This document shows, one piece after another, positions 12,023 through 55,366 of a stretch of DNA of 64,000 bases (the stretch's first letter is position 1; the number at the start of each line of letters is the position of its first letter). The notes beneath the pieces are model-generated. The model had not been told where the DNA came from, did no database searches, and worked only from the letters and a program-made list of their open reading frames with translations. The stretch comes from Massalongia carnosa (taxonomy: Eukaryota): NCBI GenBank assembly GCA_965645245.1, contig OZ287075.1, forward strand, positions 930,001 to 994,000. The letters run 5' to 3'. A program made the translations under genes and the position numbers.

Positions 12023-12739
12023 ATGGAGAAATTGCAGTAATCTCCCGCTAGACAAGTTCTTCCTCGCCTAATTCCACGACCTCCTTTGTAGCCAGAGGAA
12101 AGAAATCATTCTTGGAGCTCCCTTCCTTGAGATACGATATTTACTCTCAGCTACAATCTGGATACCGGACACGTCTTCTTTCTACAGCAGAATCATCCTT
12201 GGAGATCCTTTCCAGGCCAAAAGGCATAGATCTTGTCTGGACAACACGTCGACGGTGCTGCAAAGAGTACAAGTTGAGGCCTGCATCCTGCTTCATCAGC
12301 ACGCACGTTGCCACGACTGAATTTTCCCTGCAGTTTGATAGTAAGCAGTCATCGCTTTTAACTGGCGGCTCTTCCTACAATACAGTAGATATATGGATTT
12401 TATATCTTAAGTCTTCTTCGCGCCTGGACTGTGTTCCTGTGTTAGCAAGTTCCTACTCTAGATCCTCTGGACCTTCTCCGATTCCAACGAGCTTTTAACT
12501 AAGTCTTGTGGGATTGATACACCTTTGCCACCATATCTTCACCTCCTGCACAACTCTTCACCAGCTGCGGCAAGGAACACTAGAAGCAGGCTCTATTGTC
12601 TCTTCTACTTAAACAGCCTTTATCCCGGTCATCTTTATCATATGGGTTTTCCTGATAGCACAGCTTTCACCCATGACCGATAGGCGGCTGTGTGTCTAAC
12701 CTCAACGGAAGTGTTCTACTTGTGTCCATGGCGCTGTAA
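12023..12739 (+). promoter_or_regulatory. Five short upstream ORFs in the putative CLG1 5' leader
   Basis: MEKLQ* 12023-12040, MDFIS* 12393-12410, MGFPDSTAFTHDR* 12642-12683, MTDRRLCV* 12673-12699, MAL* 12728-12739. They lie downstream of a CT-rich promoter-like tract at ~11870-11990. The transcription start is unknown. Confidence 0.45.
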
Positions 12740-12933
12740 CCTGCTCTTTACGGTTAGACGTTATCCCAATATTTTGGAGAAGCCCCTCTTGCCAATCGCG
12801 ACATATCGATAGTGTTGAAGGCAATCATTCGTCCTCCCACCATACCGCATCTGGAAAATCGAAGGAACTATATCCGGTCAGGCTTCTCTCGCTATTCTCC
12901 CTTGCTTCGTTGCTCAAAAAAACACTAATCGCC

Positions 12934-14361
12934 ATGCCATCTTTCTACCGAAACACTCAGCCGCGCCAGATGCCACCAACCCCACCGGATCATTGTGGAG
13001 CCTACCAAGAAAATACCACCTCCATGTTTCAGCAGCCAACGTTGATCTCAAATCAGCACCCTATGATCTCTCGCAATGAGTTGTTAGGGCTTGAGGGATC
13101 CGACTTCATGAAGCCACGTCCTCAGATATCTAATAACCTGTCGCATCAAGCAGTTTATGCTAAGGACAACAACCTTCTCTTGGGTTCAGTTTATGCTGCT
13201 CCCTCGTATGCTGGGGTGAATGCGCCGCTGTTACCGCCAATCAGGGTCCCAGATCGCTCCCTTGACGATCATCAACACCTTCGATCTAAGCGCACGCAAC
13301 CTACGTCACAGCAAATACCGGAAAAGGCGGTGGGTGGCGTTGCAGCCCACTTGGATTATGAGATGGAGCAAATGGCCGACTTTGTAGCCGAAATGGCACA
13401 GGGAATGTATACTCTCTATGAATCCCGAATCTGCTTAGCAGATATTGACATCATTCGAAGTGTTAATCCAAACGTATTAATTCCACCTGCTTTTCGCAAA
13501 TACGTTTTACAAGTTCTTTCTTCGACCCGCTTACCCAGCACCACTATTCTTCTTGGTCTCTATTATCTCGCTACCCGCATGACTATGCTATCAGTTAGCG
13601 GAAGGTATACCACTGGTAGTGGGCAGGTTTACCGTATGCTTGTGACATCGCTGTTGCTTGGCTCTAAATTCTTGGATGACAATACCTTCCAAAACCGTTC
13701 CTGGTCTGAAGTTAGCAACATACCTGTCAGTGAGCTGAACGTGCTGGAGATTGAATGGCTATTGGCTATCAACTGGGATATGCACGTTAAATACGATGAT
13801 CCACAGGGATTTCAGCTTTGGCATAAGCATTGGGAGAGGTGGCAGATCAAGAATGTGGAAATCTCTATGGACTCGCTGAAGTTGACGCCTCTCGATCCTG
13901 GCATTACACGGCAAGGGTCGTTGAACAAGCAGTTTTCTCAGTCTCCGCTGTATCCTACACTGTACAAGGACGCCACTTTCAGCACTGCTATTAAAGAACA
14001 CCTGCAGCTTCAGTGGCAGACCCCTTGTCATGATCAGTGGCCCTCGTTGCGGGTTCGTACGGATTACTCTCCCCCCTCAGCCCCAGAGACCGGCCCTACC
14101 ACACCCGACTGGTATGGACACTTTGGGAGCTATGCTTTTGGAACCAATTCAAGGAAGTACAATACGAGAACAACTCCTTTATCAACACATAGCCTATCGT
14201 CAAATGGTCAGTTTCCAGGCTACCAGACGCAATATACTCCGCAATATGGCCCAAATGCCTGGAATAACCACGGGGCCCATTGTGGATGTGTTTATTGTAT
14301 CCCTCACCACGATCGTTACCTCATGGCTTCTGGATTTGGACCTCAACCAGTTGCGGGTTAG
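12934..14361 (+). CDS. CLG1: Pho85-type cyclin Clg1-like
   Basis: GGVAAHLDYEMEQMADFVAEMAQGMY...FRKYVLQVLSSTRLPSTTILLGLYYL...LLLGSKFLDDNTFQNRSWSEVS. First ATG at 12934. Confidence 0.87.
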   Translation: MPSFYRNTQPRQMPPTPPDHCGAYQENTTSMFQQPTLISNQHPMISRNELLGLEGSDFMKPRPQISNNLSHQAVYAKDNNLLLGSVYAAPSYAGVNAPLLPPIRVPDRSLDDHQHLRSKRTQPTSQQIPEKAVGGVAAHLDYEMEQMADFVAEMAQGMYTLYESRICLADIDIIRSVNPNVLIPPAFRKYVLQVLSSTRLPSTTILLGLYYLATRMTMLSVSGRYTTGSGQVYRMLVTSLLLGSKFLDDNTFQNRSWSEVSNIPVSELNVLEIEWLLAINWDMHVKYDDPQGFQLWHKHWERWQIKNVEISMDSLKLTPLDPGITRQGSLNKQFSQSPLYPTLYKDATFSTAIKEHLQLQWQTPCHDQWPSLRVRTDYSPPSAPETGPTTPDWYGHFGSYAFGTNSRKYNTRTTPLSTHSLSSNGQFPGYQTQYTPQYGPNAWNNHGAHCGCVYCIPHHDRYLMASGFGPQPVAG

Positions 14362-15403
14362 CTGGGAAATATTTGTCGATGGCATTACTCTCAATTTGCA
14401 AACTCGACCTGGGAAGCTCCAGCTTCTGGTCCAAATCATACCTCAAAAAATACGCCATGAGTTTCGGTGGGGCTCGTCTGCTCAATACACTCCTGTCTTG
14501 CGATGTCAAATCTGATTCAGGCTTGGTTCTTTAAGATCGGTAACTCCTGGACGATCGACATCACTTTACCTTTTCCAAGTGGCTTACGTTCTAGCCTTAG
14601 ATTCCTGATGGTGCTGCATGGCGTTATTGGTTTATTCGTGTCTGACGGCCTCTAAAACCCCATTTCACTTTCGAATCATCACCTTCACCCCCGCAAAAAT
14701 TTCATTTCCATTTTTTTCTTACTAGAATCTTTGAGGCGTTTCTTCTCTTCGGGATCATTCATATGGTTTTCTCGGTGGAGGGCGTTGTTCTTGAGTCCTT
14801 CCCTTTCAAGATGGCGAACAGCTATGAGTTTGCGGCGGTAGGGGGGGGGGGGATGAGGGCGGGTTACAGCTGTTCGATGCTCTGTTTGCATGACCACTCG
14901 TTATCGAACCCATTTTTCTTAAGACGACTAAAAGTGCGGAATGGCCCAAGACATTAGCATTGCATTCTTTGCGCTGGCAGGAGGGACCGCATCGGTGCCA
15001 TTATGGATAGGTCTCTTGCTGTCCTTCTTTCCACATCACACAAAAAATCTTGTAATTTAAAAAGGGGATTCGCATGGGCTTGGAGATGGTCTGGGCAGTG
15101 ACTATCATATCAATCCATTGGTACGTTCGTATCAGGACAATTAACGAGTTTCGAACCCCCCATTGCCAATTTCTTTCCGCTATGATACTGTCGTCTATGC
15201 ATGCATTGAGAACAGCGCGTGATTTACAAATCCCAGTAAATCATAGGATCAATCAATCAACATAAGTTTAGTGTAGTCGGTCGGTCGGTCGGTCAGTCAA
15301 TCGAGTTCCATTGTGACAAAGCAGGTGCAAACAAACATCATGATTATGTAACGCGAGAAGAGTAAACGAATAGGTAGTTCCATAGTTGATAGGAATGGAT
15401 CGG

Positions 15404-15796
15404 CACGCGGGTGAAAAAAAAAGATGCAACGTGGGCAGAGGTTACCCCATGATCACCCCACCAAAAACCCTTCCAATTCCCCCTAAATTCCATCTAAAAA
15501 TCATGTTTAATACAGTTATTGCACCGTGACTGTCAATCACAGCTTGATTTGCGACCTCGAGTGTCATATATTTCTGACCCTTTATATTCTGCTCTTTCAG
15601 ATCTAACATCAAATTCTTTGAAAATATCGCGCACGTCGTGTGGAATACCTTTAGAAGAAAGATATTAATGCGCGCCTTGCAATTTAGCCTTCAGAGGAGT
15701 ATCATAATGTAGCATCACGTTTGAAAAGATGAGATTTCTGTGGGGTAGTCTGGGGTTAACCTCGGCCCACGTTGCATCTTTTTTTTCACCCGCGTG
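15404..15796. mobile_element. 393-bp non-autonomous TIR element (MITE) with CAC...GTG ends and 5-bp TSD ATCGG
   Basis: Left end CACGCGGGTG(A9)GATGCAACGTGGGCAGAGGTTACCCCA; right end (rc) CACGCGGGTG(A8)GATGCAACGTGGGCCGAGGTTAACCCCA. ATCGG flanks both sides (15399-15403 and 15797-15801). No internal ORF. Confidence 0.9.
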
Positions 15797-16586
15797 ATCG
15801 GTAACCAAATAATTAACGCGAAGGTTTGCTTGCTTTTTATTCGTTAGGGGAAGTATATTATATGTGATGAATTATAGTGAATGGGTATATATGTATATAT
15901 GGATAGATAGTATATGATATATAGTAAGTGACATATAGTAAGTGGTGTTATGGTGGTATTTATGTTGTTTGGTCGTCACTTTTTACACACTGCACGAGTG
16001 AGGGTACATACCTAAGACAAAATTGAGGAAGAGTATAATATACATACGTACGTACCTCCATGCAAGTTTTTTCCACAATCAGTTAGGGTGGAGAGGGGAG
16101 GGGGGGGTGAATGTTGATTGAGTAGTGGTCGATCGGTCAAAAAGCCCTGCAAGAGAAAGAAAAGAAGGAAAGGGGGGGGGAAAAAAGGGGGGGAAGAAAA
16201 AAAAGGGGGAGAGGGGAAAGGTAAATGGATGAACGTAGCATTTGTTATTAGTTAGCTTCTCAGATGTGGTTTTAGTAGGAGGTCTATGTATTCCATCCAG
16301 ATCATGAAGCAAGAGTAGTAATAGAAGATTAGATAGATATAGACTAATTGAATTTTCTAGATTTTTTTTATCGAGGTTAGTTAGCTTTATAGATGTCCCA
16401 GTTTCTAGCCATTACCCCCTTTCCTTCCTTCGTTCCTTCAAGCTATAAAATCATCAAATATGCTGGTTAAAAGAATGTGCATGTGCATTCCCAGGCCCAA
16501 ACCCCCAAAAAAAACTTTTACCGTCTTTTTCCTGCCTCCTAAACCAATGACAGAAGAAGGCTCCTGGATGAAAATGTAACGATATA

Positions 16587-18520
16587 TCAAACCCCGGCTT
16601 GCTTGACAATTCCTGCAACTTTTGCGGCCAAATCATCCGCTTCACCTCTCGTTGCCGCCTCGGCGTACACCCTTACCGCATCCTCGGTGCCGCTGGCTCG
16701 CGCAAAGCTTCGGCCATTCTTGTACTTCCCCACCAGAGCATCTATCTGTGCCTGAACGCCAGGTGGACTTTCGAGTTTGCGCTCCGCGTCCACAGTCTTA
16801 AAGATGTTCCGATCCTCAACCTCAACGCGCACCAAACGGTTTGGAAGATCGGTATAGGTCAAGTCCCATTCTTTGGGTCCCCAACCTTTGTGGGCGAGAA
16901 TGACTTCTACCAAAAGGAGGTCTGAGAGGGCGTCTCCAACGGTTTGGTTGATCAACAAAGTTAGAGCACGTAACGTCTCGAGGGCCGAAGCTTGTGCAGG
17001 CGACTTGGGCTCGTATTTGGTAAGCCTCTTAAGCGCCAAATCGGAGAAAACCACGGTGCCGTGCCCGTTAGCTTCAAAATATACCCCAACATCAAATTTA
17101 GTGGCTGCATGGTGCAAATACTTGACACCTGTAGGCGTGCACACCACGGGCAACTTCAGGTCTTGGGTCACATAGGCCGTGCTTGCTCCGTTCGCATACG
17201 CAGTTTGTACGACACCCACCTTAAGTCTCTCCCCTAATCCAGCACTTCTTGCCAGGTCGCCTATAAATAATGCTGCGAGGGTAGCAATACGGTCACCATC
17301 AAGAAGCCGAAAGGTATTGTCCGCATCCACGAAGTAATATACTATGCGGTCGGCATCTCCGTCGAGTGAGGCACATCTCGTCAATCTACTAGCCTGTGAT
17401 GACGGAGGAGCACGTTGTCCTGTCTTTACGAAGTCTGCTCCACACTGTCAAGAGAATCATCAGTACTCCTAGTGCTTGAGAATTGAATCATTTACTCAAG
17501 GGTGTACCTGATAGTTCAGACGTTCTGGATCTAAAACATCGTCGTTAACAACTTTGATATCAAGCCCACCTTCGGATACAGCTGGTAGGTATTTGAGCAA
17601 TTCTCTTAGCTTTGGCCCGCCAACCCCGTTCGCACAATCTACTGTAACGGATCCGTTGGGCTTTCGGCCTTTCATAGCCGATCTGAACGACGATGTAATC
17701 TTCTCGTAGTAGCCTTGCTCAGTCGGGACTCCATACTCAAACTGCGTGCCCTTGGTATTCAAACAGCGAGTAAGGTAATGTAATTGAGGAGTGGTGAGAA
17801 TCTTGAAATCAGTGTACTCAGCCTCAGCAGCGCTGAGACCTTCGACAAGAGCAGTGACTAGATGAGGTCCCGAAGCTCGTGTGTCACGAGCAAAAATTAC
17901 GCGAGCCTTAGCTTTCGGTTTGATCTTTAGATCCTCTGTCAGTTTCTCATAAAGCTGAGCAAGCAACTCGTCCGTCGGCGCATTTGCGAGCGCGGTAGCG
18001 AAAGTCTCCCAAGATCCCTTTACCCATCATCAATATTTGAAAGGATAACAAGACTAATGCTTGGAAATTGTACCTCCAACATCTCTCCCTAGCCCGAGAA
18101 TTAGCTTACAATATTAGACTAGATGAAAACAGGGGTACTCTTACCATGGGGTCAACTAATTTAACACCATTATCGTCTGGAGGATTATGGCTGGCAGTAA
18201 TCATAACTCCTACGACTTGTCCGTTCAATTTTCTTGATCGCAAGGCCGCCAACAACCCAATACGAAAGACAACAGAATCTAGAAGCAAGCTGTGCTCATA
18301 GAAAATTCAGCCATTTCCCTAGGACTGAGTTTCTGAATTCGTAAACTGTGGAGAGTTCACGCCAAAACCTACGATTTCATGCGGAACTGCAAGTCATTTT
18401 AGCGATTGCGGCAACAGACTAGGTTGTGTGACTCACTCCGGCGGTGCCATACTGAAATATTTTATCAGCAGGCTTAGAGTACCGAGCCGAACTCGATATA
18501 ATTGCGTCAATAGAAACCAT
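16587..18520 (-). CDS. PCM1: Phosphoacetylglucosamine mutase
   Basis: Motifs [38 protein letters not shown] and RASGTED. Spliced via micro-exons 18373-18386 (14 nt) and 18074-18088 (15 nt). Confidence 0.95.
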
Positions 18521-20007: not shown

Positions 20008-20224
20008 GATGCGGAATTTCTTTACACGGAACAATGCGAATATCGCCAAAAACCCTGTTTAAAAAAGGGGTAATGTAATACCTATTGATATTAAAACTTG
20101 AAATTAGGATTCAAGTTAACGTCTATAGTTATTTTCAATTCTTTAGCTACATGTTTTTAAAAATTAAACAGCTATAATTAAAATTTTAATTATACGAAAG
20201 TTAAAAATAAGCTAAAATAACCAA

Positions 20225-20306
20225 TGGAGGAGCGGAGGATCGAACTCCGGGCCTTCCGCATTAATACTAATGCAAAGCGGACGCTCTACCACTGAGCCAC
20301 ACCCCC
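20225..20306 (-). tRNA. tRNA-Ala(TGC) with a 10-nt intron (20261-20270)
   Basis: GGGGGTGTGGCTCAGTGGTAGAGCGTCCGCTT-TGC-A[TTAGTATTAA]TGCGGAAGGCCCGGAGTTCGATCCTCCGCTCCTCCA folds as a cloverleaf with the G3:U70 alanine identity pair. Confidence 0.95.
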
Positions 20307-20505
20307 AATTTTAAATTTAAAACTATTTATTTATTAAATTATTATAATTTACAAAATAAAGATTAATATTACGGCTAGCTAATCCTAGTTCCCGAATTTC
20401 CGAGAATTTCGGGTAACAAATCTTTAAGCTCGACTTAACATTAAACACGGCATGATGCGCTGACCCATCAACAACGCCTTAATCTGTTTGGCAAGGAGCT
20501 CCAAA

Positions 20506-22823: not shown

Positions 22824-22864
22824 TGTGATTTTAGGCTTGATCTTGGAAAAAGTATGAAGTGTAT

Positions 22865-25022
22865 CCCTCTCGCTGTCATTCTAGCACCCCCCCCCCAAGC
22901 TAAACCATTGTTGGTTAGAAAGCGCTAAACCTTAAACTTTTGACCAATCAATGTTATTCCTATTCACAAGAAGTTGTACGGAGTATCAGATACCTATTTA
23001 CTCGTCCCCTATCATATGAATAGCTTCCCAACAGCTGGCTTTCTTAGAGCAGGGCCTGATTGGATTACATCCTCCACAAGCCCATATAGTCTGAGCACCC
23101 CTTCGCCTTCTTTTACGCCCATCGACACTTATTTCAGCCAGTGGCTCTCCCTTCCGCTTTGAAGGTCGTTTTTTCTCGGCGTTACATTGCACACATCTTT
23201 TTCTGCCTTCAAGACGAACGTAATGATGAATGGGAGATGGTACTAAAGCATCAATCGTGGTATTGATGTTTATCTTTGATGAGCCGGGCCTGATGCCCGC
23301 TTGATTTGATATCAGTTCAAGAGCAATCCGACGAAGAAATTCAGAACGAGTAAATTTTATCTCCTCGGAATCGAAAGAGTTCAGCGAGTAAAGTTTATAG
23401 GCATTCAATCCGGCTGCATCTAAAATAAAAATGAACAAAGGCCACCAGTAACGATCCGTTCGACGATTGTATGAGTAAATCGCTCGTTGCTGAGCGTTTC
23501 CATCCGATCCCCCCATATGAAGATTATATTCTTTGATTGGGGCTGGTATCGGTAATCCTAAGGGCCGTTGAACCTCTTGATTGAGCAAGGGAATGGAGTG
23601 AGCCAGAGTTGATGGGAAATACGATACAATAGGTTGAAGAGAGGTCTCGGGAATTCCATATCTCTTGTGCGGATTTATATAGTGCATTTCGTACAAGTCC
23701 TGAGGAGAATGACCGGTGGTCATGTACTGCACACCATTATTATCCACCCAGCCCATACAAAGCACCTTATCGTCGACCACCATATGGGCCTGAAGACCCC
23801 AGTCTTTTCCTTTTGAAGTGACGTCCCGTATGGCCAACAATTCTTCTGGAAAGCCCGAGCCCTTTTTAGCAGTTCCACTGGCAGCTATTCCGATTGATCG
23901 AAGTGCCTTGAATAATTTCGTACTAGTAAAGAAATTATCACAGAAAAGATGATAATTCAGTGAGGATGGAAGTTCTTTACATAACTGAATCACTAGCAAA
24001 GCACTAGGAGTTAGTTTATCTTTTGGCAAAAATCCCAATTGTCTGACTGTTTTCAATTCACTTATTCTGCTACTCTTCGAGGCAAACATAAATGACAACA
24101 GATAATTATCCTGACAGAGACTGTAGATTTTAAATCCTTTATGGGCACTTTTTGTAGTAATCTGCAAGGTATGTCGAGAACGGCCCTTGAATAACACCAG
24201 CTGTTCATCTATAGATATCATACTTCCTGGTCTGCAATGTTTCAATGAAGTCTTTCGGAAATCAGTAGCCAACGGTTCCAGTTTCTTCCACCAATCAGGT
24301 CCTTGACCAAGTCCGATAGGCTCAGTCTGTCCATTATTGATTTTCAAAAATCGTTTGATTTGTTGAAATCGACCAAGCGACATCGCGGACAGAATAGGCA
24401 TGATAACTGGTTTGTCAGGACGTTGATTCCAATAATCCTCTGTAGCAGGTAGATGATCGAGTCCCATAAGAATTAATATGCCCAAAAAAACCTCAATTTC
24501 CGAGTCAGTCCAAACCCGATGATTGTTCTCCTTCTCCTTTTCCATGTAGTTATTTGCCTTGATATTGGTATGATTTGCGATGATACGACAATGCTGCCTT
24601 GTTATAAATAACCGAAATAATCCCAAAGGATTTCGAGAATCGTTTTCAACGAGCGGAACAAAAGGCCTGTTTTCAACCCGAATGGGGGTATATTTTGAGG
24701 AAATAGGGGGAAGGTCGATTAAAATATCCCGAACACTTCTTTTGCGATTTATTTTATGTTGCTTCGCTGAAATGGGAGATTTGTCTGATACACTCGGGAT
24801 TTCTTCTTCATTGAGCGTCATACTTATAATATCAATTCCGAAGCTAGAAGAATAGTAATTTATGTGATTTATTTTGATTGAATGACCGAATAGTATTCTT
24901 TGAAAAGTAAACAAACGCGCAAACACTCTAGAGAAAACTAATGTTCTGATGACTCATCGGTGCGGAAGCTAGTCCAATATAGATTAGCTTGGGAGGGGGG
25001 TGCTAGAATGACAGCGAGAGGG
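22865..25022 (-). mobile_element. piggyBac-superfamily DNA transposon, 2158 bp, apparently complete
   Basis: 39-bp TIRs CCCTCTCGCTGTCATTCTAGCACCCCCC[C/T]CCCAAGCTAA at 22865-22903 and 24984-25022 (one mismatch). Flanks are GTAT (22861-22864) and ATAT (25023-25026). Contains a single transposase ORF. Confidence 0.93.
22998..24821 (-). CDS. piggyBac-type (DDE_Tnp_1_7-like) transposase, uninterrupted
   Basis: Catalytic motifs SIDEQLVLFKGR, FCDNFFTS and YNLHMGGSD; C-terminal Cys-rich domain HH...RCVQC...CGGC...C...CW..H. First ATG at 24821; the open frame extends to a GTG at 24926. Confidence 0.9.
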   Translation of the reverse strand: MTLNEEEIPSVSDKSPISAKQHKINRKRSVRDILIDLPPISSKYTPIRVENRPFVPLVENDSRNPLGLFRLFITRQHCRIIANHTNIKANNYMEKEKENNHRVWTDSEIEVFLGILILMGLDHLPATEDYWNQRPDKPVIMPILSAMSLGRFQQIKRFLKINNGQTEPIGLGQGPDWWKKLEPLATDFRKTSLKHCRPGSMISIDEQLVLFKGRSRHTLQITTKSAHKGFKIYSLCQDNYLLSFMFASKSSRISELKTVRQLGFLPKDKLTPSALLVIQLCKELPSSLNYHLFCDNFFTSTKLFKALRSIGIAASGTAKKGSGFPEELLAIRDVTSKGKDWGLQAHMVVDDKVLCMGWVDNNGVQYMTTGHSPQDLYEMHYINPHKRYGIPETSLQPIVSYFPSTLAHSIPLLNQEVQRPLGLPIPAPIKEYNLHMGGSDGNAQQRAIYSYNRRTDRYWWPLFIFILDAAGLNAYKLYSLNSFDSEEIKFTRSEFLRRIALELISNQAGIRPGSSKININTTIDALVPSPIHHYVRLEGRKRCVQCNAEKKRPSKRKGEPLAEISVDGRKRRRRGAQTIWACGGCNPIRPCSKKASCWEAIHMIGDE

Positions 25023-25114
25023 ATATTCTTAAGAAGTTATTATAGATACTATAGTGCTGGAGCGAAAGGTGGTATGCGACCACGGGTGGCTCACGATGAG
25101 CAAGTATGAGTCAT
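24949..25114. promoter_or_regulatory. Two perfect Gcn4/CpcA (AP-1-like) consensus sites
   Basis: ATGACTCAT at 24949-24957 inside the transposon 5' end and ATGAGTCAT at 25106-25114 in the host flank. Function is not shown by the sequence. Confidence 0.45.
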
Positions 25115-26908: not shown

Positions 26909-26980
26909 CGACACCTGGGAGATTCGAACTCCCAATCTTTGCCACCGGAAAGCAACGCCTTGCCATTAGGCCAAGGTGTC
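26909..26980 (-). tRNA. tRNA-Arg(CCG), intronless
   Basis: GACACCTTGGCCTAATGGCAAGGCGTTGCTTT-CCG-GTGGCAAAGATTGGGAGTTCGAATCTCCCAGGTGTCG forms a 72-nt cloverleaf with a perfect acceptor stem. Confidence 0.93.
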
Positions 26981-43733: not shown

Positions 43734-44619
43734 AGTCGATATTTGATGGTAGATAAGATCTCCCGGAATGAAGCCATATGGATGGCTAGTTGTTAGGATT
43801 TTTGGGAGGAAAATATACATATCTAACCTGTACATAGATACATATATGTCGCTGCGGGGAGCATACAGATAGACATGTAGTTATGCTTACTTATGGTTGC
43901 GAAACGAGGACTTCTTTTCTGAGTTATAGAGCATTCATCTCATCACCTTGTGACTGCGCTGTCCGCTTCATTTTGTGCCCCAGGCCCCTCCTTGGTTCCT
44001 GATTCCTGAACGCAGCCTTCTCCATCGATGGGTGGCATAAGGAAAATCTGTCTAGGTGGTTACCAAACCTAATAATCGCTTGGTCGATCCAGCCTTCATA
44101 GGCTGATGATAACATACATGCAGGGCGATGACTTTGCAAGATCCACAGGAAGGATGTCGTCGCTCGCTAGCTAGTTAGCATGGGGCGGGAATGATTCTGG
44201 CGGTGCTTCCGCCCGGAGGAACCTAACTTAGTCTCCGAGCACTAGCTAATTAGCCAAGATAGCACGTGAACGCGTTCATCCCGATTCGTTTTCTGAGTCA
44301 CTTTGCTTTCTTCCTTTCCCTTGCAAGCCATACATTGCCTTTGGGTTATCGAGTGAAGCGCGCTTTCTTCAACATGTTGTGTTTTCGCTATCTGGACCCA
44401 GTCTCATGTTCATACGCGATACTGCAGAAACCGCCTTAGTTGATTGGCACAATCTGGATACGTTAACTAATCGTGTCAAGAAACTAGTAATCGAATAGTA
44501 GGCGACTCGCTTCGATTACTAGTTTCTTGACACGATTAAGTAATTCGTTGATCGGTCTTTTTTCCCCGCTCCCCTATCCCTCCCTTCCGCCCCCGCCTGG
44601 TTCCCCTAGGCCAACAAGG

Positions 44620-45882
44620 ATGACAATGTTGGACGAAACTCTCCACACCTCCAACCGCCCAGTCCATCTCGACGGCACGACCCTCGAAGGCGGTGGCCAA
44701 CTCCTCCGGCTTGCGCTGTCCCTATCTTCCCTAATTCATATCCCCATCCACATCACGAACATACGTGGCAAGCGAGGACCCAAGTCGGCGCCTGGACAAG
44801 GCGGGGGACCCAAATCGGCGCATTTGGCTTGCGTGCAATGGCTTGCTAAAGCTACCGGGGCGGAGGCGAGCGGTGTGGAGGTCAAGAGCCGAGAATTGGT
44901 GTTTCGGCCTTCTGGGCGGGAGGGCGTAGATTCCAATACAACCGGAGTGTGGAAACATGTGTACGAAAAGGATAAACTTGTTAGACGGGATTCTGACATC
45001 CTTATGTCTACTCCTGGCTCGATATCTCTAATCTTCCAAGCTATCCTACCGTTCATTCTGTTCTCTGCACCCCTTCCCTCGACAGATCCTTCAGACTCAA
45101 GCATTCACCGGGCAGATACCACGCCGGTTCGAATTAACATTCAAGGTGGCACCAATGTGAGCAATTCCCCGTCTTTTGAGTATATCGATCAAGTGCTTCT
45201 ACCCATCCTTAGTAGCAAGCTCGGCATATCACCAATCCGCATAAAGCTTCATCGCCGTGGTTGGAACCAAGGGCGAGCGGATGTGGGAAGTGTGACTGTC
45301 GATATCACACCCCTGAAGCCTGGCTCCTCGTTGCCCGTTTTCTCCTTCACCGTCAGGGGAGACGTGCTAAAAATCCATGTCTCGGTGCTTGCGCCAGGCG
45401 CAGTGATCAGGAACAACATCAAGGACAAGGTTGTAGCGAAACTTCTCCAACGGCATCCGGATGTCGAGATTCTCTTCCCTCTTGACGAAGACTCGCGCGA
45501 CGAAAAACGGCTTTACCTGCTTCTGGTAGCTGAGACTTCTTCGGGTTATCGACTGGGCAGAGACTGGTTATACGATCGGAAGATAAGGTCTTCGAAAGCG
45601 GTCGATGATCTTGTCACGCGGGTGGTGGATGATCTGGAACAGGAGCTTGCGCATGGAGGGTGCGTGGACGAGTATCTGCAGGATCAGCTAGTGGTCTTCC
45701 AAGCTCTTGCTCAGGGAAGGAGTTGGATAGACGATGGGACGCGTAAGGAGGCTAGCTTGCATACGAGAACGGTTCGGTGGGTGGTGGAACGCATACTGGG
45801 CGTGGGGTTTGATGAAGCGGGCACATGCGCTGGGATTGGATACCAAGTGGGCGAGAACTTCCTGGGCGAGAGGAGAGGTTGA
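44620..45882 (+). CDS. RNA 3'-terminal phosphate cyclase (RtcA-type)
   Basis: LDGTTLEGGGQLLR, IRGKR, GGTNV..SP, RRGW, DEYLQDQL and SLHTRT (putative catalytic His position). Intronless. Confidence 0.88.
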   Translation: MTMLDETLHTSNRPVHLDGTTLEGGGQLLRLALSLSSLIHIPIHITNIRGKRGPKSAPGQGGGPKSAHLACVQWLAKATGAEASGVEVKSRELVFRPSGREGVDSNTTGVWKHVYEKDKLVRRDSDILMSTPGSISLIFQAILPFILFSAPLPSTDPSDSSIHRADTTPVRINIQGGTNVSNSPSFEYIDQVLLPILSSKLGISPIRIKLHRRGWNQGRADVGSVTVDITPLKPGSSLPVFSFTVRGDVLKIHVSVLAPGAVIRNNIKDKVVAKLLQRHPDVEILFPLDEDSRDEKRLYLLLVAETSSGYRLGRDWLYDRKIRSSKAVDDLVTRVVDDLEQELAHGGCVDEYLQDQLVVFQALAQGRSWIDDGTRKEASLHTRTVRWVVERILGVGFDEAGTCAGIGYQVGENFLGERRG

Positions 45883-46437
45883 GAAGAAAGTGAGGGAAGG
45901 GCTTGCGAAGCCTGCGCAAAGACTCTGCATCGAGGCGGAACCCTCGTGACTTTTCCAACGTGTGCTGAATGGGGATATTGCCCTATCCACAAAATCTCGG
46001 ACCAACGCTACCCCATCTAATCCAGTTTAACGCCACAAATAAAACCACCCTCCTAATCGTCCCATCCATCGGCCGTCTCTCGCCAGCATGAAACCGATAT
46101 CGCTAGTCAAGAATCCATCAACCAACCAACTCCCCTCTTGCTGACCCATCTTTATCTAATCCCCAAATCACATACAGTCCCCTTCTTCCATAATATAACC
46201 GAGGTATATAACAAAAGCCCCTTGCTGCTACTGCTGCTGCTGCTGCGAGAAACCACCCGATAAACTAACCGATAAATAAATTCATACCGGCCAGCTAGCT
46301 AGGCGAGGTCTGGGTCTGGATAATGATAATATTCCATGGCGGCGGCGGCAGCGCAAAAGGCCCCGAATGCGTCTCTCTCACTGACTCGCTCACTCACTCA
46401 ACCCCCCTTTCCAGCTTCTTCTTGACATGAACCTTTC

Positions 46438-46820
46438 CTAATCATCATAACCTTCCGGAATCCTCCTCGGGCCCGCCGGTACTGCATACAACACCCCAGC
46501 CATTAGCTTATCATTCAGCCATCCATCACCATCATCGTATCCCGTCAATCATCAACTAGTCCCCAACCACGTAAAATTACCCAATCACCTCCTTCCCGCT
46601 GGCCCCTAGGGGTGGTTTGTGGGAAGGTGTACTCACCGGGATACGTCAAGGGAATCCTCTCACGGGGCCCATCCCCGAACCGCGCCCGCAGGGGAGGGAC
46701 CACGACAATGAAGACGGGCCCTAGGCTGCCTAGTACAATGGAGTAGAAGATGGCGGGTTTCTCGTGCGAGGCCCAGCGCATGTAGTGGAAGGGCGTGCTC
46801 CAGAAGCGGGGGTAGGACAT
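46438..46820 (-). CDS. NADH:ubiquinone oxidoreductase 9.5 kDa subunit (NDUFA3-like)
   Basis: PRFWSTPFHYMRWASHEKPAIFYSIVLGSLGP...IPLTYP|VPAGPRRIPEGYDD*. Intron 46482-46636. Confidence 0.9.
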
Positions 46821-47932
46821 TTTCTTGAGATGATAGTTTGAGGGGGGGTTGCAGGGGAGTTGGGTGTTTGGGAGTTGGAAGGGGGATTAGAGTGATAGGG
46901 GGGTGGAATTGGGATTGTGAAAATCGTTAGGAGGGGTGCGGGAGGATAGCACGATAGGTAGATCTCTAGGAGGTCTTTAGGTACTCTGTATGTACTTTTG
47001 TATGTACAATACTCTGTATTAGGGTTTTGAGTTGAGAGAGAGCGGCAGTTCGGCAAGCTCGGCCCGAATCCCCCAAACTCGCAACTTTGAACTACGTACT
47101 ACATGGTTGTTCCGGCTTCGCGGACACTGGAGAACACATTTCGTACAAGCGGAACCAATGCTCATTCACATGCAGGAACGCCTTTAGATTTTGACGATTC
47201 ACTCATACATACGCATATCTCCCATAGCTCCCCCCCCCTAAGTGCATGTAACTAAAACGCTGGAGGTGAGAGTTTATTGTCAAGGAGCAGGCAGATGAAG
47301 AGTTGTTTTGTTTGTGCATGCAGGGATGGATGGATGGACGGACGGAGCGCGGAGATGGAAGGGGCAGGTGGGTGGGTGGATGGAGGAGAATCTGATGAGG
47401 GCGGAGGGGAGGGGGGGGAGAGAAAGCTTTTGAGAGGGAAGATATGCTGATGAACTTGGCTTTGAGTGTATGCTATGTTATGATACGTAAGTCTGTTTAT
47501 TTATTTATTTATTTATTTGGTTTCTTGTCTTTCGGCATTTTAGAATGTGTCGTGAATTTCGTCCCCTTGATTTTGGGAGGCTGATAGGTTTCGACATCAT
47601 GCAGTCATGATTGTAGATGATTAGTCCATCCAGCACTGCATCTCGAGGTCGTTTTGTGTCTTTCTGCCAAATGCATGAATATGACTGCAGATGCTTTATT
47701 TGTCATCTAGGTTCCATTCGTTCTTGAGTGCGATGTGGGCTGTTCAAAAACATTGGGATTCCGTTCCTTTTCTGGATTTATTCGTTCTTCGATCCGCGAA
47801 GCACTCGTCTCGATATTTCAAATCTATTCTTTACCTTCTTCTTCATCGAGTGGGGCGCTCTTCGCTTTTCTCCGTCCATATCATTAATTATAGAGCATAC
47901 TTCTCCTGTCAAGGAGTGGAGCAAAAAATTTA

Positions 47933-49022
47933 ATGGGCTTATCTATTCTCCTTATCGGCGTCAGTGGGAATGTAGGCGCCTTTCTTATTCCGGAATTCTT
48001 GCGGCAGAGGTCAAGCTTCAATCGCGTTGCAATCCTGACAGATGCGTCGAGAGCCAACAAGTTTGCTCAGGTAAAGAAGGATGGCATCGAGATTGTCGTT
48101 GGCTCCTTTCCGGATGTGGAGTCTTATCGAGGTTCGTTGCTTCCACGTTTCGTCAGAAAAGATGCCGGAACTTGAAAGAAGAATCAAGAAGCCGAAAATG
48201 AAGCAATTCTGGAATGTAAATATAGCCCCCTAACAAGCCAATGCGTAGGCTTTGATGTCGTCCTCTCTCTGGTCCGAAATCCAATCATGCGGCTTCAATC
48301 CGCCATGGCAGAACTAGCTATCGCAGCAGGCGTGCGTCATTTCTATCCATCCGAATACGGTGCAGCTGTCTACAACGAGTCGAACGCCAACCTTCGTTAT
48401 CTCCGGGATAAGCTCGTCACGCGGAACCATCTTGCCGCAAAGGTGAAAGAGGTCCCTGCATTCCACGCCACGTATATTGTCACTGGGAACTTTACCGAGT
48501 GGTCCGTGTCCGATTTCTACGGGGTAGACATGGAGCGGCGGGTGGTGAATACCTACGCACGACCGGATTCCGAGATTTGCGTGACTTCGACTCGGGAGTA
48601 AGTCTCTGCTTTTGTTTCTGGGGGGATTCGGATTACCGGGCGTGGAGTTAACGTGACCTGTCTATCCAAGTATCGCACGCTACACGGTCGACTCGCTTCT
48701 GATGCCACTCGATGCCAACAAGGGAGAACGAGAAATCCGAGTGGTGGGCAGCCGCCTGACGTTCCAACAACTGATCGACACCCTTGGCGCGGCACAGGGC
48801 GTCGAATATCGCTGCACGTACCTGCCCCTTGCGGAAGCGCTCGCGAAACAAGAACAGTATCGCACAAGCGGCGATGAAGCCTTGGAACTCATGTGGTCGG
48901 GAAAGTTGCTAGTTGCGCTAGGTGCAGTGTCCATCCCCGAGCCGCTGGATAACGGCAAGTTTGCCTTTACACCGGAGACGGCGGAGGAGACGATTTGCAG
49001 GGTGTTTGGTAATGAAGAGTAA
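47933..49022 (+). CDS. NmrA/isoflavone-reductase-like NAD(P)-binding protein
   Basis: ILLIGVSGNVG Rossmann motif, GVRHFYPSEYG, DIARY. Introns 48132-48248 and 48598-48670 give a continuous frame. Confidence 0.85.
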
Positions 49023-50149
49023 TTCTCTTGACCAAATGGGGGAGAAAGTTAAATTTATGGGTGTGCAAGGGGAGGAGATCGTCGAGCTACCAGCCCGCTT
49101 TTCTCTTTTATCTCCTCTGTCCCCTTCTTTCTTGGAGTAATAACATTTCCTGTAAAAAGTCCACGGCCAATATCTCTCCAAAAATCCCGTGAGCGCCCCA
49201 GTGCGTTTCCTTTTCTTTCTTAGTTATGTAGTTGGGCAACTATGTATGTAATCGAAGACGCGTATTTCTACCCTCAGGAACTTTTGCGGGAGACTGCTGC
49301 TGCTGCTGAGATTGAATAATCCTCCAGAGCTAGTTTGCTTGCTATTTGGTATTTATTGATCTGAAGAGAGGAGGGAAGGAGACGAGAGAAAAAGAAAGAA
49401 AAAGAAAAAGAAAAATAAGAGAGAGAGAGAGAAGCTTGAAAAATTAAGCGCGTAAACAACGTCACTAGCCCCTGTCTCTGAAGCTTATCTGAACGAGTCC
49501 TAAATCTCCCACCCTGGCTGGATCCAGAAAAAAAAAGGGGGTGGGGATCAAAGCTACAGGAAGATCCCAATTCACTATGGCATAGCAAATTCTAGGAGTT
49601 CAAGTACTTGTCTCGATCTTTCTAACGAGCGGGCAGTCTTATAAAGTGAGAAACGGTTGATTTAAAAAAAATTAAATCGGTTTGTTAGAGGCTCCCTAGG
49701 GCTACTCCCAATCGAAATTCATCAAAGTCGTCGTGAAGGAGTCCTCGAACTGCATCAGAAATCACATCGTCTAGCTTCAGGCTTCAGACGGCTGTATTCA
49801 CTGGACGCGAAATTGTCAGTAGATGATTCGTAAAAAAGCTGGAACGGCGAAACTTCTACTAGCTAACAAACGGTGATTAAAAGTAAAAGGCTAGCTAACT
49901 TGGAAGTTCGTAAGTTTAAAACTTGAAGATCACCTTGCGATATTATCACTCTCAAAAGATACCTATAGAGTCTTAGGCACTCTTGGGACTACAGGAGATG
50001 ACATCGCTCATCTCGATGATGGCACAAAAGATAACATAGACACCAGTAGTTCCAGCCACTATGGCCATTGCTATTCGATCATCATCCCAACCTTCTAGGG
50101 GCGGGTGGTAGTCCTCCTAGAAACAGTCAGTAGCAACAGCGGTATGCTA

Positions 50150-50711
50150 TTAACCACTGTCAGCATCAAAAGCTTCTTCCTAGTTCGTTCTTTCGCTAAA
50201 TATCAAAACAAAGGAAAGCAGTCTCATAACTTACAATTCCTGTTGGGCAATCATGACGTAAGGCATCACAATTCAGATGTTTTTTATCAACTGTTGTCAT
50301 GAATCAATCGTACAGGGGATTCAGCCGTTGGGAGGATTCTTGATGATGACAGGCAATGCTTACGTTTTCTACAGTTATATTCGCCCGTGTCCTCGTCGAC
50401 GTTGCAACATAGGTACAGTTTCTCATTTGATTTAGCGGGGGATGGTTTCCTTGCTAGCTCCAGACGCCCCGTTTCTTTAACTTCAAGGTCTTGCAGAGTT
50501 TGGTCAGTTGCGTCGAGCGGGTTGTCTGTCAATTCAAAATCGGCAAAATAATCCCCTGAGCGTTGGGAATTAGTGAAATTGTCTCAGCTTGAGGGAGGCC
50601 GAAAACTGTCTTGCCTGAGTTGGTGTTGAATGGATCGCCTGAGCTTTGAAGAAGTGATCTAGCAATTACTGAGGGTAGGGCAAAGAGGAGGAGGTAAAGG
50701 CGTACACGCAT
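50150..50711 (-). pseudogene. Small secreted Cys-containing (effector-like) protein, frameshifted
   Basis: Signal peptide MRVRLYLLLFALPSVIA. The frame shifts near CCCC 50553-50556 into DYFADFELTDNP...YLCCNVDEDTGEYNC. Canonical introns at 50291-50363 and 50180-50234. Confidence 0.5.
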
Positions 50712-50790
50712 GATGAAGTTCGGATGTAAATTCATAGAAAGAAAAAAGAGCGAGAAAGATTCGAGTGCTCATGGAGCTTTTGTTCATATC

Positions 50791-50874
50791 CCGTGTTGCA
50801 AGACGAGAAGTAGGCAAACTATTGCTTAAGATCCGTGTTGCAAGGCGAGAAGTGGGCAAACTGTTGCTTAAGAT
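50791..50874 (+). repeat. Tandem duplication, 2 x 42 bp
   Basis: CCGTGTTGCAAG[A/G]CGAGAAGT[A/G]GGCAAACT[A/G]TTGCTTAAGAT at 50791 and 50833. Confidence 0.9.
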
Positions 50875-50952
50875 GTGCCGCCCATCATGTGATGAAAACG
50901 GCCCGATAGTGCAAGTCTTTTGCAATCGAACATTTTCTAACAAAAACATCCA

Positions 50953-52902
50953 ATGACCAGTCGCTCAACAAAGCTAGCAGAATTGCTAACCCCTTTATTT
51001 CAGGCGTGCGTCACGCAAGCGTATCATCCTCGCGAGTTCAAAAGAGCGAACACGATAACGCTCAAAAAACCGGGAAAGAAAGACAACACCAGCCCAAAGG
51101 CATATCGGCCCATAGCTCTCCTGAACACAATGGGTAAAGTTCTAGAAGCGGTCATCGCAAAGAAAATCACCCACATAGCGGAACAGCATCGGCTCTTGCC
51201 CGACACGCAAATGGGTGCTCGGCGAGGGCGATCCACCGAGTCCGCACTCGAGCTTCTCACAGAACAGGTATACACCGTATGGGGACAAGGCAACGACAAG
51301 GTGGCAACCCTACTCAGCATGGATGTGGCAGGTGCGTTTGACACGGTGTCTCACCGTAGGCTAATACACAATCTACGGAAAAGGAAAATTCCGAAATGGA
51401 TCACAGACTGGACAGCAAGCTTTCTGGAGAATAGGAAAACCACATTAGCAATAAATCGGCGAGCAACCGGGGAGTTCGCAGTGCGCACGGGCATTCCTCA
51501 AGGCTCGCCCATTTCCCCTATTCTGTATCTGTTCTACAACGCGGACCTATTAGAGATATGCCAGAGACCCGGCACGAACACGAGTGCGCTGGGATTCGTA
51601 GACGACGTAAACGTGTTGGCATACGGTAAAAGCACGGAAGAAAATTGCAGAACTCTTGAAAGAATTCACAGGAAATGCGAATTGTGGGCGACACGGCATG
51701 GCTCCGTATTTGCACCGGATAAATATGAACTCATTCATTTGTCAAGAAATCCAAAGAAATTCAACATGACGGCCACTATTCAAATTGAAACCAATCTGAT
51801 TGAACCAAAAACGGACATAAGAGTACTGGGCCTACAAATCGACACAAAACTAAAATGGGGAGCTCATATACGGAAGACGCAGGAAAAGATGACGTCGCAG
51901 TCGCTAGCGCTCACAAAAATCTCGGCATCCACCTGGGGAGCATCCTTCGCAAAGGCCCGGCAGGTCTACACCTCCGTCGTCCGCCCGGCAATGACATACG
52001 GAAGCGCCGTGTGGCACACGCCCAAGGAAATCAAGAAAAACAAGGCCACGATGTCCAAACTCAGTGTCATGCAGAACAAATGCCTACGCACTGTGGCAGG
52101 AGCGTTTAAAGCAACACCCGTCGAGGTTCTCGAAGCGGAAACTTTCATCGCCCCTATGGAGCTACACTTGGATCATCTGCAGATGAAAGCAAGATACCGC
52201 CTACGGGCCTCAGGGCAAGCGAAACTGATCACCACTGCCTGCAGCACAATAGCGAACAAGCTACGAGGCAAGGCAGGACGCAAACGAATACAACGCCCCA
52301 CCCTAGGAGATTTAAAACACGAATGGGCCAGCAAGATGCTAAACAACGAAGCCCCAGCCGCAATACCGCCGCCGCCCCGACCCTGGTCAGGACCCGACCC
52401 TGTCCGTCTCGAGAAATACATCACGGCACGCCGAATTATCGGAAAGCACGCAAAGACCATTACAGTACGAATCAAGGAGCGTTGGGAGACCAGGTGGAAG
52501 GCGTATCAGGACCGCGTTCCCTACCCAACAGAGGCACAGCTCGGACCACTCAACAGAACTAGATTGAAGATTCATGACAACTTGATGAAGGCGGAAAGCG
52601 CGCTAACCACGCAAATCCGCACTGAGAAAATAGGTTTGGCAAACTTCCTGTTCAATCGTCGGGTTCCGGGAGCTATGACTCCAGCTTGCTCGTGTGGCTG
52701 GCAGAAACAGACTGCCAAACACATCATATTACACTGCAGACTAATCGAAGGCAGATATGAGCTGCTCAGACAATTGGGCACCCACGACTACCGGACGATT
52801 ACGCGTTCGTCGAAAATGCTGAAAAAGCTAACTGCATGGATAATAAAAGCAAACTTGTTAACACAGTTCTCACTAGCATCGCAAATGTTATACGAGATAT
52901 AA
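50953..52902 (+). CDS. LINE ORF2 remnant: reverse transcriptase plus C-terminal CCHC motif, open frame of 649 aa
   Basis: YRPIALLNTMGK, QMGARRGRST, MDVAGAFDTV, GIPQGSPISP, GFVDD, VLGLQID and CSCG...HIILHC. Confidence 0.85.
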   Translation: MTSRSTKLAELLTPLFQACVTQAYHPREFKRANTITLKKPGKKDNTSPKAYRPIALLNTMGKVLEAVIAKKITHIAEQHRLLPDTQMGARRGRSTESALELLTEQVYTVWGQGNDKVATLLSMDVAGAFDTVSHRRLIHNLRKRKIPKWITDWTASFLENRKTTLAINRRATGEFAVRTGIPQGSPISPILYLFYNADLLEICQRPGTNTSALGFVDDVNVLAYGKSTEENCRTLERIHRKCELWATRHGSVFAPDKYELIHLSRNPKKFNMTATIQIETNLIEPKTDIRVLGLQIDTKLKWGAHIRKTQEKMTSQSLALTKISASTWGASFAKARQVYTSVVRPAMTYGSAVWHTPKEIKKNKATMSKLSVMQNKCLRTVAGAFKATPVEVLEAETFIAPMELHLDHLQMKARYRLRASGQAKLITTACSTIANKLRGKAGRKRIQRPTLGDLKHEWASKMLNNEAPAAIPPPPRPWSGPDPVRLEKYITARRIIGKHAKTITVRIKERWETRWKAYQDRVPYPTEAQLGPLNRTRLKIHDNLMKAESALTTQIRTEKIGLANFLFNRRVPGAMTPACSCGWQKQTAKHIILHCRLIEGRYELLRQLGTHDYRTITRSSKMLKKLTAWIIKANLLTQFSLASQMLYEI

Positions 52903-53105
52903 CTTCTCATTTTCGTCAAGGATTCTAAAGAAAAACGATCACAGAGAGCAGCCTGTTGCCAGCGAGGCTCCGGAGGTAGTGCGTAGTCTACGGGGTTTTT
53001 ATTCCCAAGAAGGGTTTTCCTTGTATGATAAACATAGACAGCCCGCATGGGCCGGCCTTCGGCCGGTGTCATATCGGAATAAGAATAAATCAATCAATCA
53101 ATCAA
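50963..53105 (+). mobile_element. 5'-truncated non-LTR retrotransposon (Tad/I-group LINE) with 13-bp TSD and (AATC)n tail
   Basis: TSD CCAATGACCAGTC at 50950-50962 and 53106-53118; tail AATCAATCAATCAATCAA at 53088-53105; RT ORF inside. ORF1 and the endonuclease domain are absent. Confidence 0.93.
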
Positions 53106-53450
53106 CCAATGACCAGTCTATGATTAGATTATGGCCTTTCTTGTTGTACTCGTCACATAGTCTCGAGTGCCTTGAAGGAACATCATCGAGATGCTTGGCA
53201 GATACGCCAGTTGATGACTACCATAAGGGCAGTTTGGGGGGTTTTGACGTGGTCTTGATATGATCTTGAGATCTTGATTATTCAGAGAGATGTGTCAAAA
53301 TGGGTACGCCAGATCGTTCCCGGTTTGTATGTTTTTCTGAGCGATTTCTTTACTGAAATGACTCAATATTTTTCTGCGCGTGCAAAATAGCTCGAAAATG
53401 CAAAATGAACTTGAAAATAATTTTACAATGAATAATTAAAAATAAATCAA

Positions 53451-53600
53451 AAATAAGAAAATAAGAAAATAAGAAAATAAGAAAATAAGAAAATAAGAAA
53501 ATAAGAAAATAAGAAAATAAGAAAATAAGAAAATAAGAAAATAAGAAAATAAGAAAATAAGAAAATAAGAAAATAAGAAAATAAGAAAATAAGAAAATAA
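53451..53600 (+). repeat. (AAATAAGA)n perfect tandem repeat, ~18.7 copies
   Basis: Read directly from the sequence; it explains the spurious FLIFLFSY-repeat ORF at 53350-53604. Confidence 0.95.
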
Positions 53601-53790
53601 CCAAATATCATGATGTTATAAACAACAGGTTGTCAAATCTAAGTGGCAGGAATCGCTTAGTAATTAGCGAGCTGCAAATGGGTTGAAAACGGGTAACTAC
53701 GAATCGTGTCTGCTTAGCATTGAACACGTCTCTCAGAGCATGCAGACAAACGGCTATATACGCAACTGGGACGAGTTCTAAAGCCCAATC

Positions 53791-55366
53791 ATGCGTTGGC
53801 TCATCTCTTGTGTCTTTCTTGTGTCGCTCGGATTGGTTCAGGCCCTCAGCAGCAACGGCAATCGATTGCTGGTTGTCATTGAGGAAGCTGCCGAGAAGGA
53901 GAAATATTCACAGTTTTGGGGGGATTTGGAAGGTAAACTATCCCATCTCGTTCAAGAATAACATCGAAACATTTGCTAACGCTCATATTCAAAAGGTCGA
54001 GGTTTCAGGCTGACGTTCGAGTCTCCTAAGAATGAAAACCTTGCTCTTTTTCGACTCGGAGAAAGAACGTTCGATCACATCATTTTACTTCCCCCGAAGT
54101 CAAAGGGTAGTTTTTCTTTAGTAGAAAATGTCGACCATGCGCTTACTTTAGGACAGGGTTTGGACCAGCACTCACTCCTAATATTCTCCTTCAATTCATC
54201 AACCAAAACGGCAACATTCTCCTAACTCTTTCCGGAGATTCCCCGACCCCAACCGCCATCTCCTCTCTCCTTCTGGAGCTAGACATCCACCTTTCCCCAG
54301 ACCGAACGTCTCTTGTGGTTGACCACTTCAACTATGATACTCTTTCTGCGGTCGAAAAACATGACGTACTTCTTTTACCCCATCCCTCGGCATTACGATC
54401 AGATGTGAAGAATTTCTTCGCAGGTCAAGGCACGATTGCTTTCCCGAGGGCTGTAGCTCAAGAATTAGGGAATAATAGTCCACATCTTGCTCCAATTTTG
54501 CGAGCGAAGAACACGGCATATAGCTATAATGCAAAGGATGAAACCCAGACGGTAGAGGACCCTTTCGCCGTGGGCGAGCAGATCTCGCTAGTCTCCAGTA
54601 TGCAAGCCAGGAATTCAGCAAGGTTTACCGTTTTCGGTTCTGTTGAAGCGCTGGAGAACAAATGGTTCGATGCCAAGGTCAAGAGCCCAGATGACAAGGG
54701 GACTAAAACCGCCAACCGCGCGTTTGCGAAACAAATCAGTGCGTGGACTTTTATGGAAACCGGCGTGCTGAAAGTTGGAAGAGTTGATCATCATCTGAGC
54801 TCAATCGGTGGAGGAGCTGCTGGGAACGACAGCGTCACCAAGGTTGGCTATCTGAACCCACCAATATACCGGATCAAAACCGATGTCGTAAGTGGATCTT
54901 TTATGTATCCTTCCCTTTATAGCTGCTGATACCTTGAAAGACCTTCAACATTGAACTCTCTGAATACTCCTTCGATCACCTTGACCCGTTGACCATCCCC
55001 TCCACTGACGCTCTTCAACTTGAATTCACCATGCTCTCACCCTTCCACCGCCTGAACCTCCAGCCTATCTCGCGATTCATCAACAGCACCGTCTATAGCA
55101 CCACCTTCAAGCTGCCCGACCAGCATGGGATCTTCGCATTCCGCGTTAACTACAAACGACCGTTCCTCACCAACATTGACGTTAAAAGGGAAGTCACGGT
55201 CCGCCATTTCGCCCACGATGAATGGCCCCGCAGCTGGGAGATCAGCGCTGGTTGGGTGTGGATCGCGGGCGTATGGATTACGGTCATCGGCTGGGTGGGG
55301 TTTGTGGCGCTCTGGCTTTGGAGCAAACCGGCATTTGAGCGGAGTCGGGGAAAAAAGGTGCAATAG
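53791..55366 (+). CDS. WBP1: Oligosaccharyltransferase subunit Wbp1/OST48
   Basis: Signal peptide, YSQFWGDLE|GRGF, QARNSARFTVFGS, QLEFTMLSPFHR, LPDQHGIFAFRVNYKRP, C-terminal TM segment and KKxx. Three introns. Confidence 0.94.

Follow-up and report, generated by a model that had tools for sequence, protein, structure and literature searches.

Among the described DNA transposons closest to the element treated here are the Transib elements, and their hallmarks, as set out by Kapitonov and Jurka (2005, PMC1131882), are a 5-bp target-site duplication and a CAC that is universally conserved at the termini. The Transib end is described there as a 38-bp structure, which consists of CACAATG, a spacer of 23 bp (sometimes 12 bp) and an A-rich nonamer (AAAAAAATC), and the targets are described as preferentially GC-rich (PMC1131882). 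In AanRAGL, the ends contain elements of 13 bp and 10 bp with 4/13-bp spacers between them (PMC9435367). The CACTA/Mirage/Chapaev/Transib (CMCT) group as a whole is characterized by CA..TG ends and duplications of 2–5 bp; in its fungal lineages the duplications are 3 bp for EnSpm, 2–3 bp for Plavaka and TA for ESTA (Kojima 2025, PMC12730594), and most reports of these lineages come from Basidiomycota and Mucorales. Of the other superfamilies that come into question, hAT elements are represented in the legend of Figure S7 of PMC1131882 by 22 families, all hATs with 8-bp duplications, in which the third terminal nucleotide is always G, and Ginger elements have ends of the form TGTNR...YNACA, as in Gypsy LTRs (PMC2836005).

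The record of Transib in fungi has changed with time. In 2005, soybean rust was given as the only fungus with Transib (PMC1131882), and in the survey of Muszewska et al. (2017, PMC5751038), which used the RAG1 Pfam domain, Transib was scored as absent from the fungal genomes surveyed. Tao et al. (2022, PMC9435367) counted 20 Transib-like proteins in fungi, and their supplement includes Massospora platypediae, Rhizophlyctis rosea, Austropuccinia psidii and the ascomycete Erysiphe pulchra. The view that the superfamily is known mainly from animals, which the first-pass annotation of this DNA had adopted, is thus dated, and because Transib-like proteins from fungi, an ascomycete included, are already published, a case in a lichen would add a new host class and would be the first neither for fungi nor for ascomycetes. 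A preprint on transposable elements of the Peltigerales (bioRxiv 10.64898/2026.02.14.705750) names Fot1, Sagan, Gypsy, Copia, L1 and Tad1; MITE, TIR, piggyBac, CACTA and Transib are unmentioned in its main text, and its supplements may contain a repeat library in which the element described below is included.

The window, that is, the whole 64-kb stretch of DNA analysed here, is gene-dense outside the locus and carries housekeeping genes. The element lies within a 2.07-kb spacer between two convergent genes, one for a Pho80-type cyclin and one for phosphoacetylglucosamine mutase (AGM1). The ORF at 16587–17447 on the minus strand was assigned by Pfam to the C-terminal part of AGM1; its best database match is from Sticta canariensis (94% identical), and the matches from other Lecanoromycetes are 88–90% identical. 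Sticta belongs to the Peltigerales (Lecanoromycetes, Ascomycota). Judged from this neighbouring gene, the host is a lichen fungus of the Peltigerales, in agreement with the ascomycete origin that had been proposed at first. On the left side of the element, at a distance of about 110 nt, the spacer contains a (GTCG)n microsatellite (15273–15294); on the right side, after about 50 nt, comes a low-complexity, AT-rich stretch of TATA/GTATAT (15850–15950). The features of the locus are as follows.

12700–14515, plus strand: Pho80-type cyclin gene; its last long ORF ends 888 nt from the element
15399–15403, no strand: left target-site duplication ATCGG, identical to 15797–15801
15404–15461, plus strand: left terminal inverted repeat, made up of CACGCGGGTG, A9 and GATGCAACGTGGGC, then a less conserved part with ACCCCA at 15444 and 15455
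15462–15739, no strand: internal region without detectable coding or RNA homology, containing most of an 82-codon ORF
15740–15796, minus strand: right terminal inverted repeat, ending in ...CACCCGCGTG, with A8 (T8 on the plus strand) and TGGGGT at 15741 and 15751
15797–15801, no strand: right target-site duplication ATCGG, from the sequence and the comparison of the flanks
16587–18026, minus strand: phosphoacetylglucosamine mutase gene; its stop lies 790 nt from the element

The element corresponds to positions 15404–15796 of the window (393 bp, 42.5% GC) and is bounded by terminal inverted repeats (TIRs). Its 5' tip is CACGCGGG, an exact ATCGG is found on either flank, and the junctions read ...GGAATGG ATCGG, then CACGCGGGTGAAAAAAAAAGATGCAACGTGGGC ... 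GCCCACGTTGCATCTTTTTTTTCACCCGCGTG, then ATCGG TAACC.... In a repeat search, the outermost 18 nt of both arms (CACGCGGGTGAAAAAAAA; 15404–15421 and 15779–15796) formed a perfect pair, and a second, gapless pairing of 59 nt (81%) was found between 15415–15473 and 15728–15786; the two pairings are one base out of register because the A-run has nine residues in the left arm and eight in the right. When gaps were allowed, the first 46–47 nt of the arms aligned throughout except for an A/C mismatch at position 34 and two indels of one base each (A9 versus A8, and TTA versus TTAA), and this confirms the near-perfect TIRs of about 46 bp in the first-pass annotation. The two ends are symmetric in this alignment. 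By blastn, the pairing extends more weakly to 58 nt (15404–15461 with 15740–15796, 87.9% over 58 columns). Counted from the tip, positions 4–7 are GCGG, the A-run occupies 11–19, positions 20–28 are GATGCAACG and positions 31–39 are GGCAGAGGT. Each arm carries two ACCCCA motifs, 41–57 nt from the tip, so that the element has four of them; the count for the entire 64-kb window is 34.

Duplication lengths of 2–4 and 6–10 bp all fail on the flanks (left ...TGGATCGG, right ATCGGTAA...), and because of these mismatches 5 bp is the sole parse, a length read from the single copy that was seen (n = 1). The ends are placed at CAC and GTG because the next bases outward, a G at the left end and an A at the right end, do not pair. 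The sequence itself, the gapped alignment and the comparison of the flanks agree on CAC...GTG termini with an exact 5-bp ATCGG duplication, so both the termini and the unambiguous boundary reported earlier hold. At this one site, the GC content is 60% in the duplication, 47% in the 15-bp site and 31% in the 35-bp site, and that of the window is 46.8%.

The interior has an open frame of 82 codons at 15445–15690 on the minus strand. A search of this 82-aa ORF against 5.8 billion proteins returned only its own 55-aa record (P0121; one member, one contig), and a search against 1.84 billion representatives returned its own record and P0122; the latter match, a translated tandem repeat aligned in 14 weak stretches, was judged spurious. 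The interior, as represented by the one of its six frames that was searched, appears to hold no detectable transposase relic. No Rfam match was found in 15200–16000 at E ≤ 1, and an origin from an RNA gene was rejected on this ground. In the 64-kb window, neither a second copy nor a lone arm was detected by blastn (word size 7) or with arm patterns at up to three mismatches, and an exact 20-nt arm pattern gave, as one would expect of an element from a fungus, no match in prokaryote genome contigs. The cluster of the internal ORF has one member from one contig, whereas the best-hit cluster of a piggyBac-like ORF in the same window has 56 members and is 98% identical. Near-identical multicopy elements thus do surface in the protein database and the internal ORF does not, which is a hint of low copy number; the family of the element appears to be low-copy.

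Of the 134 stop-to-stop ORFs of at least 90 aa in the window, 77 were scanned with Pfam, the other 57 being judged to overlap, or to be antisense to, larger ORFs. No RAG1/Transib, CMC, hAT or Mutator (MULE) domain was found in the 77, and the domains of mobile elements among them were limited to two, a transposase of the piggyBac type (PF13843, E = 5e-51) and the reverse-transcriptase domain RVT_1. In the literature, no transposon paper was among the matches listed for the arm strings, which by title or abstract start concerned cloning, viral and bacterial topics; no fungal CAC-ended MITE was among those listed for fungal elements with 5-bp duplications; those listed for 5-bp duplications, again by title or abstract start, dealt mostly with LTR retrotransposons or unrelated topics, DNA transposons with such duplications being mentioned in two of them (PMC12730594 on hAT5 and PMC2836005 on TDD); and the word Transib was absent from the matches listed for lichens.

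The inverted ends with their ATCGG flanks exceed chance. A scan for inverted pairs, seeded with 11-mers, was applied to the window and to 25 dinucleotide shuffles of it. In the shuffles, the longest arm was 21 nt among about 100 seeded pairs each, and a flanking repeat of at least 5 bp accompanied five pairs out of some 2,500; long arms were absent from these five. In the real window, a flanking repeat of at least 4 bp was found for one of 133 seeded pairs, namely the element at 15404–15796. The 33-nt arm sequence of the element, with up to three mismatches allowed, did not occur in any of 100 shuffles. The element region, folded as single-stranded DNA, has an energy of -75.6 kcal/mol (z = -7.8), and none of 100 shuffles was as stable.

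The stretch 15404–15796 is very probably a transposon insertion, and its build is MITE-like, with no transposase encoded. A MITE in the full sense would belong to a multicopy family, with dispersed copies that share the ends; in the 64-kb window the element is present once. As the first-pass annotation had it, the 5-bp duplication and the CAC ends exclude Tc1/mariner (TA), piggyBac (TTAA), PIF and CACTA (3 bp), and typical hAT and Mutator (8–9 bp); Kolobok (TTAA) is likewise excluded by the ATCGG duplication. A solo LTR was rejected, the ends being other than TG..CA and the structure inverted, not direct. The CAC end of the CMC superfamilies (EnSpm/CACTA, Mirage and Chapaev) is shared by the element, but a duplication of 2–4 bp, the length known for Mirage and Chapaev, does not suit flanks that allow only 5 bp. 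The fungal EnSpm/CACTA, Plavaka and ESTA lineages resemble the element in CAC..GTG ends and in repeated subterminal motifs (here ACCCCA twice per end); their duplications, however, are 3 bp, 2–3 bp and TA, as against 5 bp here. Because of the CAC ends and the length of the duplication, with Transib the only described 5-bp member of the group, we regard the element as a likely, though far from assured, non-autonomous cut-and-paste (class II) transposon of the CMCT group. In favour of this, CAC at positions 1–3 and the 5-bp duplication are conserved Transib features, the third base, C, argues against hAT, and the TGTNR ends of Ginger/TDD are absent. Against it, the 77 scanned ORFs of the window include no matching transposase, and the 38-bp Transib pattern failed on the arms; the single copy, the low GC content of the 35-bp site and the score of Transib as absent in the survey of Muszewska et al. 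(2017) also count against it. Within the group, the element may be Transib or a member of an undescribed branch, since the layout of the arms departs from that of canonical Transib.

The possibility that the element is a true Transib-family MITE, with a RAG1-core-like DDE transposase of about 700 aa as its partner and with arms that are a diverged heptamer-spacer-nonamer, must be weighed within this assignment. The likeness to Transib elements, for example the non-autonomous TransibN1_AG, consists of CAC at both ends, a 5-bp duplication (both as in PMC1131882), an A-rich block in the arm, here a run after the terminal block, and a form without an ORF of its own. RAG-like ends with short spacers exist (AanRAGL, PMC9435367), and the 20 fungal Transib-like proteins, with an ascomycete in the species table, likewise count in its favour. 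The differences are numerous: the arms measure 46–58 nt, as against 38 nt in Transib; the heptamer is CACGCGG in place of CACAATG, so that positions 4–7 read GCGG and not AATG; the A-run, at 11–19, begins 3 nt past position 7 and not behind a 12- or 23-bp spacer; positions 31–39 are not A-rich; and the ends are symmetric, without the 12/23 asymmetry. In addition, the 35-bp site (31% GC) differs from the GC-rich targets preferred by Transib, although one site says little and proves little; the host is a lichen-forming ascomycete, and no RAG1-like transposase is linked to the element, none of the 77 scanned ORFs having a RAG1 domain; and the fungal survey mentioned above scored Transib as absent (PMC5751038). 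On this evidence, membership of the Transib family proper is possible but rather doubtful. The CAC ends and the 5-bp duplication of the Transib-like signature originally proposed stand; the layout of heptamer, spacer and nonamer published for Transib is absent. Nor is a 5-bp duplication peculiar to Transib any longer, since 5 bp is also given for hAT5 and for TDD-4 and TDD-5, and the range of the CMCT group is 2–5 bp. Transib is a reasonable lead, to be held tentatively, and no established finding. A further reading, that a RAG1-related (Transib-type) lineage is active now or was recently active in lichen-forming Lecanoromycetes, with ends that are long and symmetric, that retain nothing of the heptamer but its CAC and that have the A-tract directly next to the terminal block, is speculative and seems to us unlikely.

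The element may instead belong outside the CMCT group, to a hAT5-type hAT, to an integrase transposon of the Ginger2/TDD type or to an undescribed fungal superfamily with 5-bp duplications, and we consider this improbable. The TIRs of hAT elements are usually short. A hAT5 element would share with ours the 5-bp duplication and the form of a short, non-autonomous TIR element, and hAT5, with its 5 bp, does exist (cited in PMC12730594). Position 3 is C here, as against the invariable G of hAT, a criterion drawn from hAT families with 8-bp duplications. TDD-4 and TDD-5, of the Ginger2/TDD type, also give 5-bp duplications and have TIRs of tens of bases (40–270 bp in Ginger, PMC2836005), and both hAT and Ginger are described as widespread in fungi (PMC5751038); however, the ends of the element are CACGC...GCGTG, in contrast to TGTNR...YNACA. 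Finally, the structure might be no transposon at all, but spacer sequence that was duplicated locally in inverted orientation, or that forms a hairpin, and is flanked by ATCGG through coincidence. A single copy was seen, and the window has another unexplained perfect hairpin (44468–44538), which would agree with such a view. An exact 5-bp match of the flanks at the very point where complementarity stops is expected by chance about once in 1,000 cases, however, the few shuffled pairs with such a repeat lacked long arms, and CAC/GTG ends are typical of transposons, so that this last explanation is very improbable.

On the preferred reading, that of a non-autonomous CMCT transposon, a DDE transposase from a gene at another place in the genome would bind the arms, which would offer it the terminal CACGCGGGTG, the A-tract, GATGCAACGTGGGC and the two ACCCCA motifs. 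The enzyme would cut at the CAC ends and the two 3' ends would be joined to the target strands 5 bp apart, and repair of the gaps would then produce the ATCGG repeat. If the enzyme were of the RAG/Transib kind, excision would be expected to proceed via hairpins on the flanking DNA, as the authors of PMC1131882 anticipate. The intact duplication and the near-identical outer arms are compatible with a fairly young insertion, but are no proof of one.

With a Transib-like partner, the range of RAG1-related transposases would extend to lichen fungi, and the element would show how far ends can drift from the heptamer-spacer-nonamer, a matter that bears on the evolution of recombination signal sequences. 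On the reading of a RAG1-related lineage in lichen-forming Lecanoromycetes, the architecture of the ends would be new to the Transib/RAG group, and it would occur in a class of fungi without a described member of the superfamily. With a partner of another kind, a further lineage with 5-bp duplications would be added, and Transib could be called less safely from CAC ends and a 5-bp duplication. The ends and footprint of the element resemble those of the transposon family from which the recombinase of antibody genes arose, but one copy alone is no proof of kinship. Whatever its partner, the element amounts to a single small insert within a gene-dense spacer; with Transib-like proteins from fungi already published, it is a lead for genome-wide annotation of transposable elements, not a result in itself.

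Other repetitive and mobile sequences are present in the window. A piggyBac-like element at 22862–25025 is apparently intact; its ORF (22998–24953, minus strand, 651 codons) has a full DDE_Tnp_1_7 match (PF13843, with the E-value given above). The ends of this element are 42-nt inverted repeats (TATCCCTCTCGCTGTCATTCTAGCACCCC...) with one mismatch, and it lies directly upstream of a gene with a NADAR domain. Its flanks are TAT/ATA, not TTAA, and can be read as a TA duplication or as an extension of the pairing by three bases. For its ORF, the best match among proteins, 98% identical and in the 56-member cluster, suggests a young multicopy family. Mobilisation of the CAC-ended element by this resident was considered and rejected, as ends and duplication are both unrelated: the arms resemble neither those of the piggyBac-like element nor anything else in the window, the duplication is ATCGG in place of TTAA, and CCC...GGG ends and arms in common with the resident copy are lacking.

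A reverse-transcriptase ORF of 653 codons (RVT_1, E = 2.6e-31) is found at 50941–52902 on the plus strand, and behind it a tail of tandem (AAAATAAG)n repeats occupies 53450–53607. No long terminal repeats flanking it were found in 46000–54200, and the ORF with its simple-repeat tail looks like a LINE-type retrotransposon. Two 42-bp tandem units are located at 50791–50874. The perfect hairpin at 44468–44538 has 28-bp arms (TAATCGTGTCAAGAAACTAGTAATCGAA) and a 15-nt loop, was found to lack flanking repeats of at least 2 bp, and overlaps the start of the stop-to-stop frame of an RNA 3'-phosphate cyclase (44491–45882). Two tRNA genes were also called.

20224–20307, minus strand: tRNA-Cys(GCA), 82–84 nt, probably intron-containing
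26909–26980, minus strand: tRNA-Arg(CCG)

OTT_1508-like deaminase and HET domains are types known from non-self recognition loci of fungi. Toward the right end of the window, an ORF with an OTT_1508-like deaminase domain (57073–58053) adjoins one with a HET domain (59602–61062), and the locus comprising the two occupies 57073–61065.
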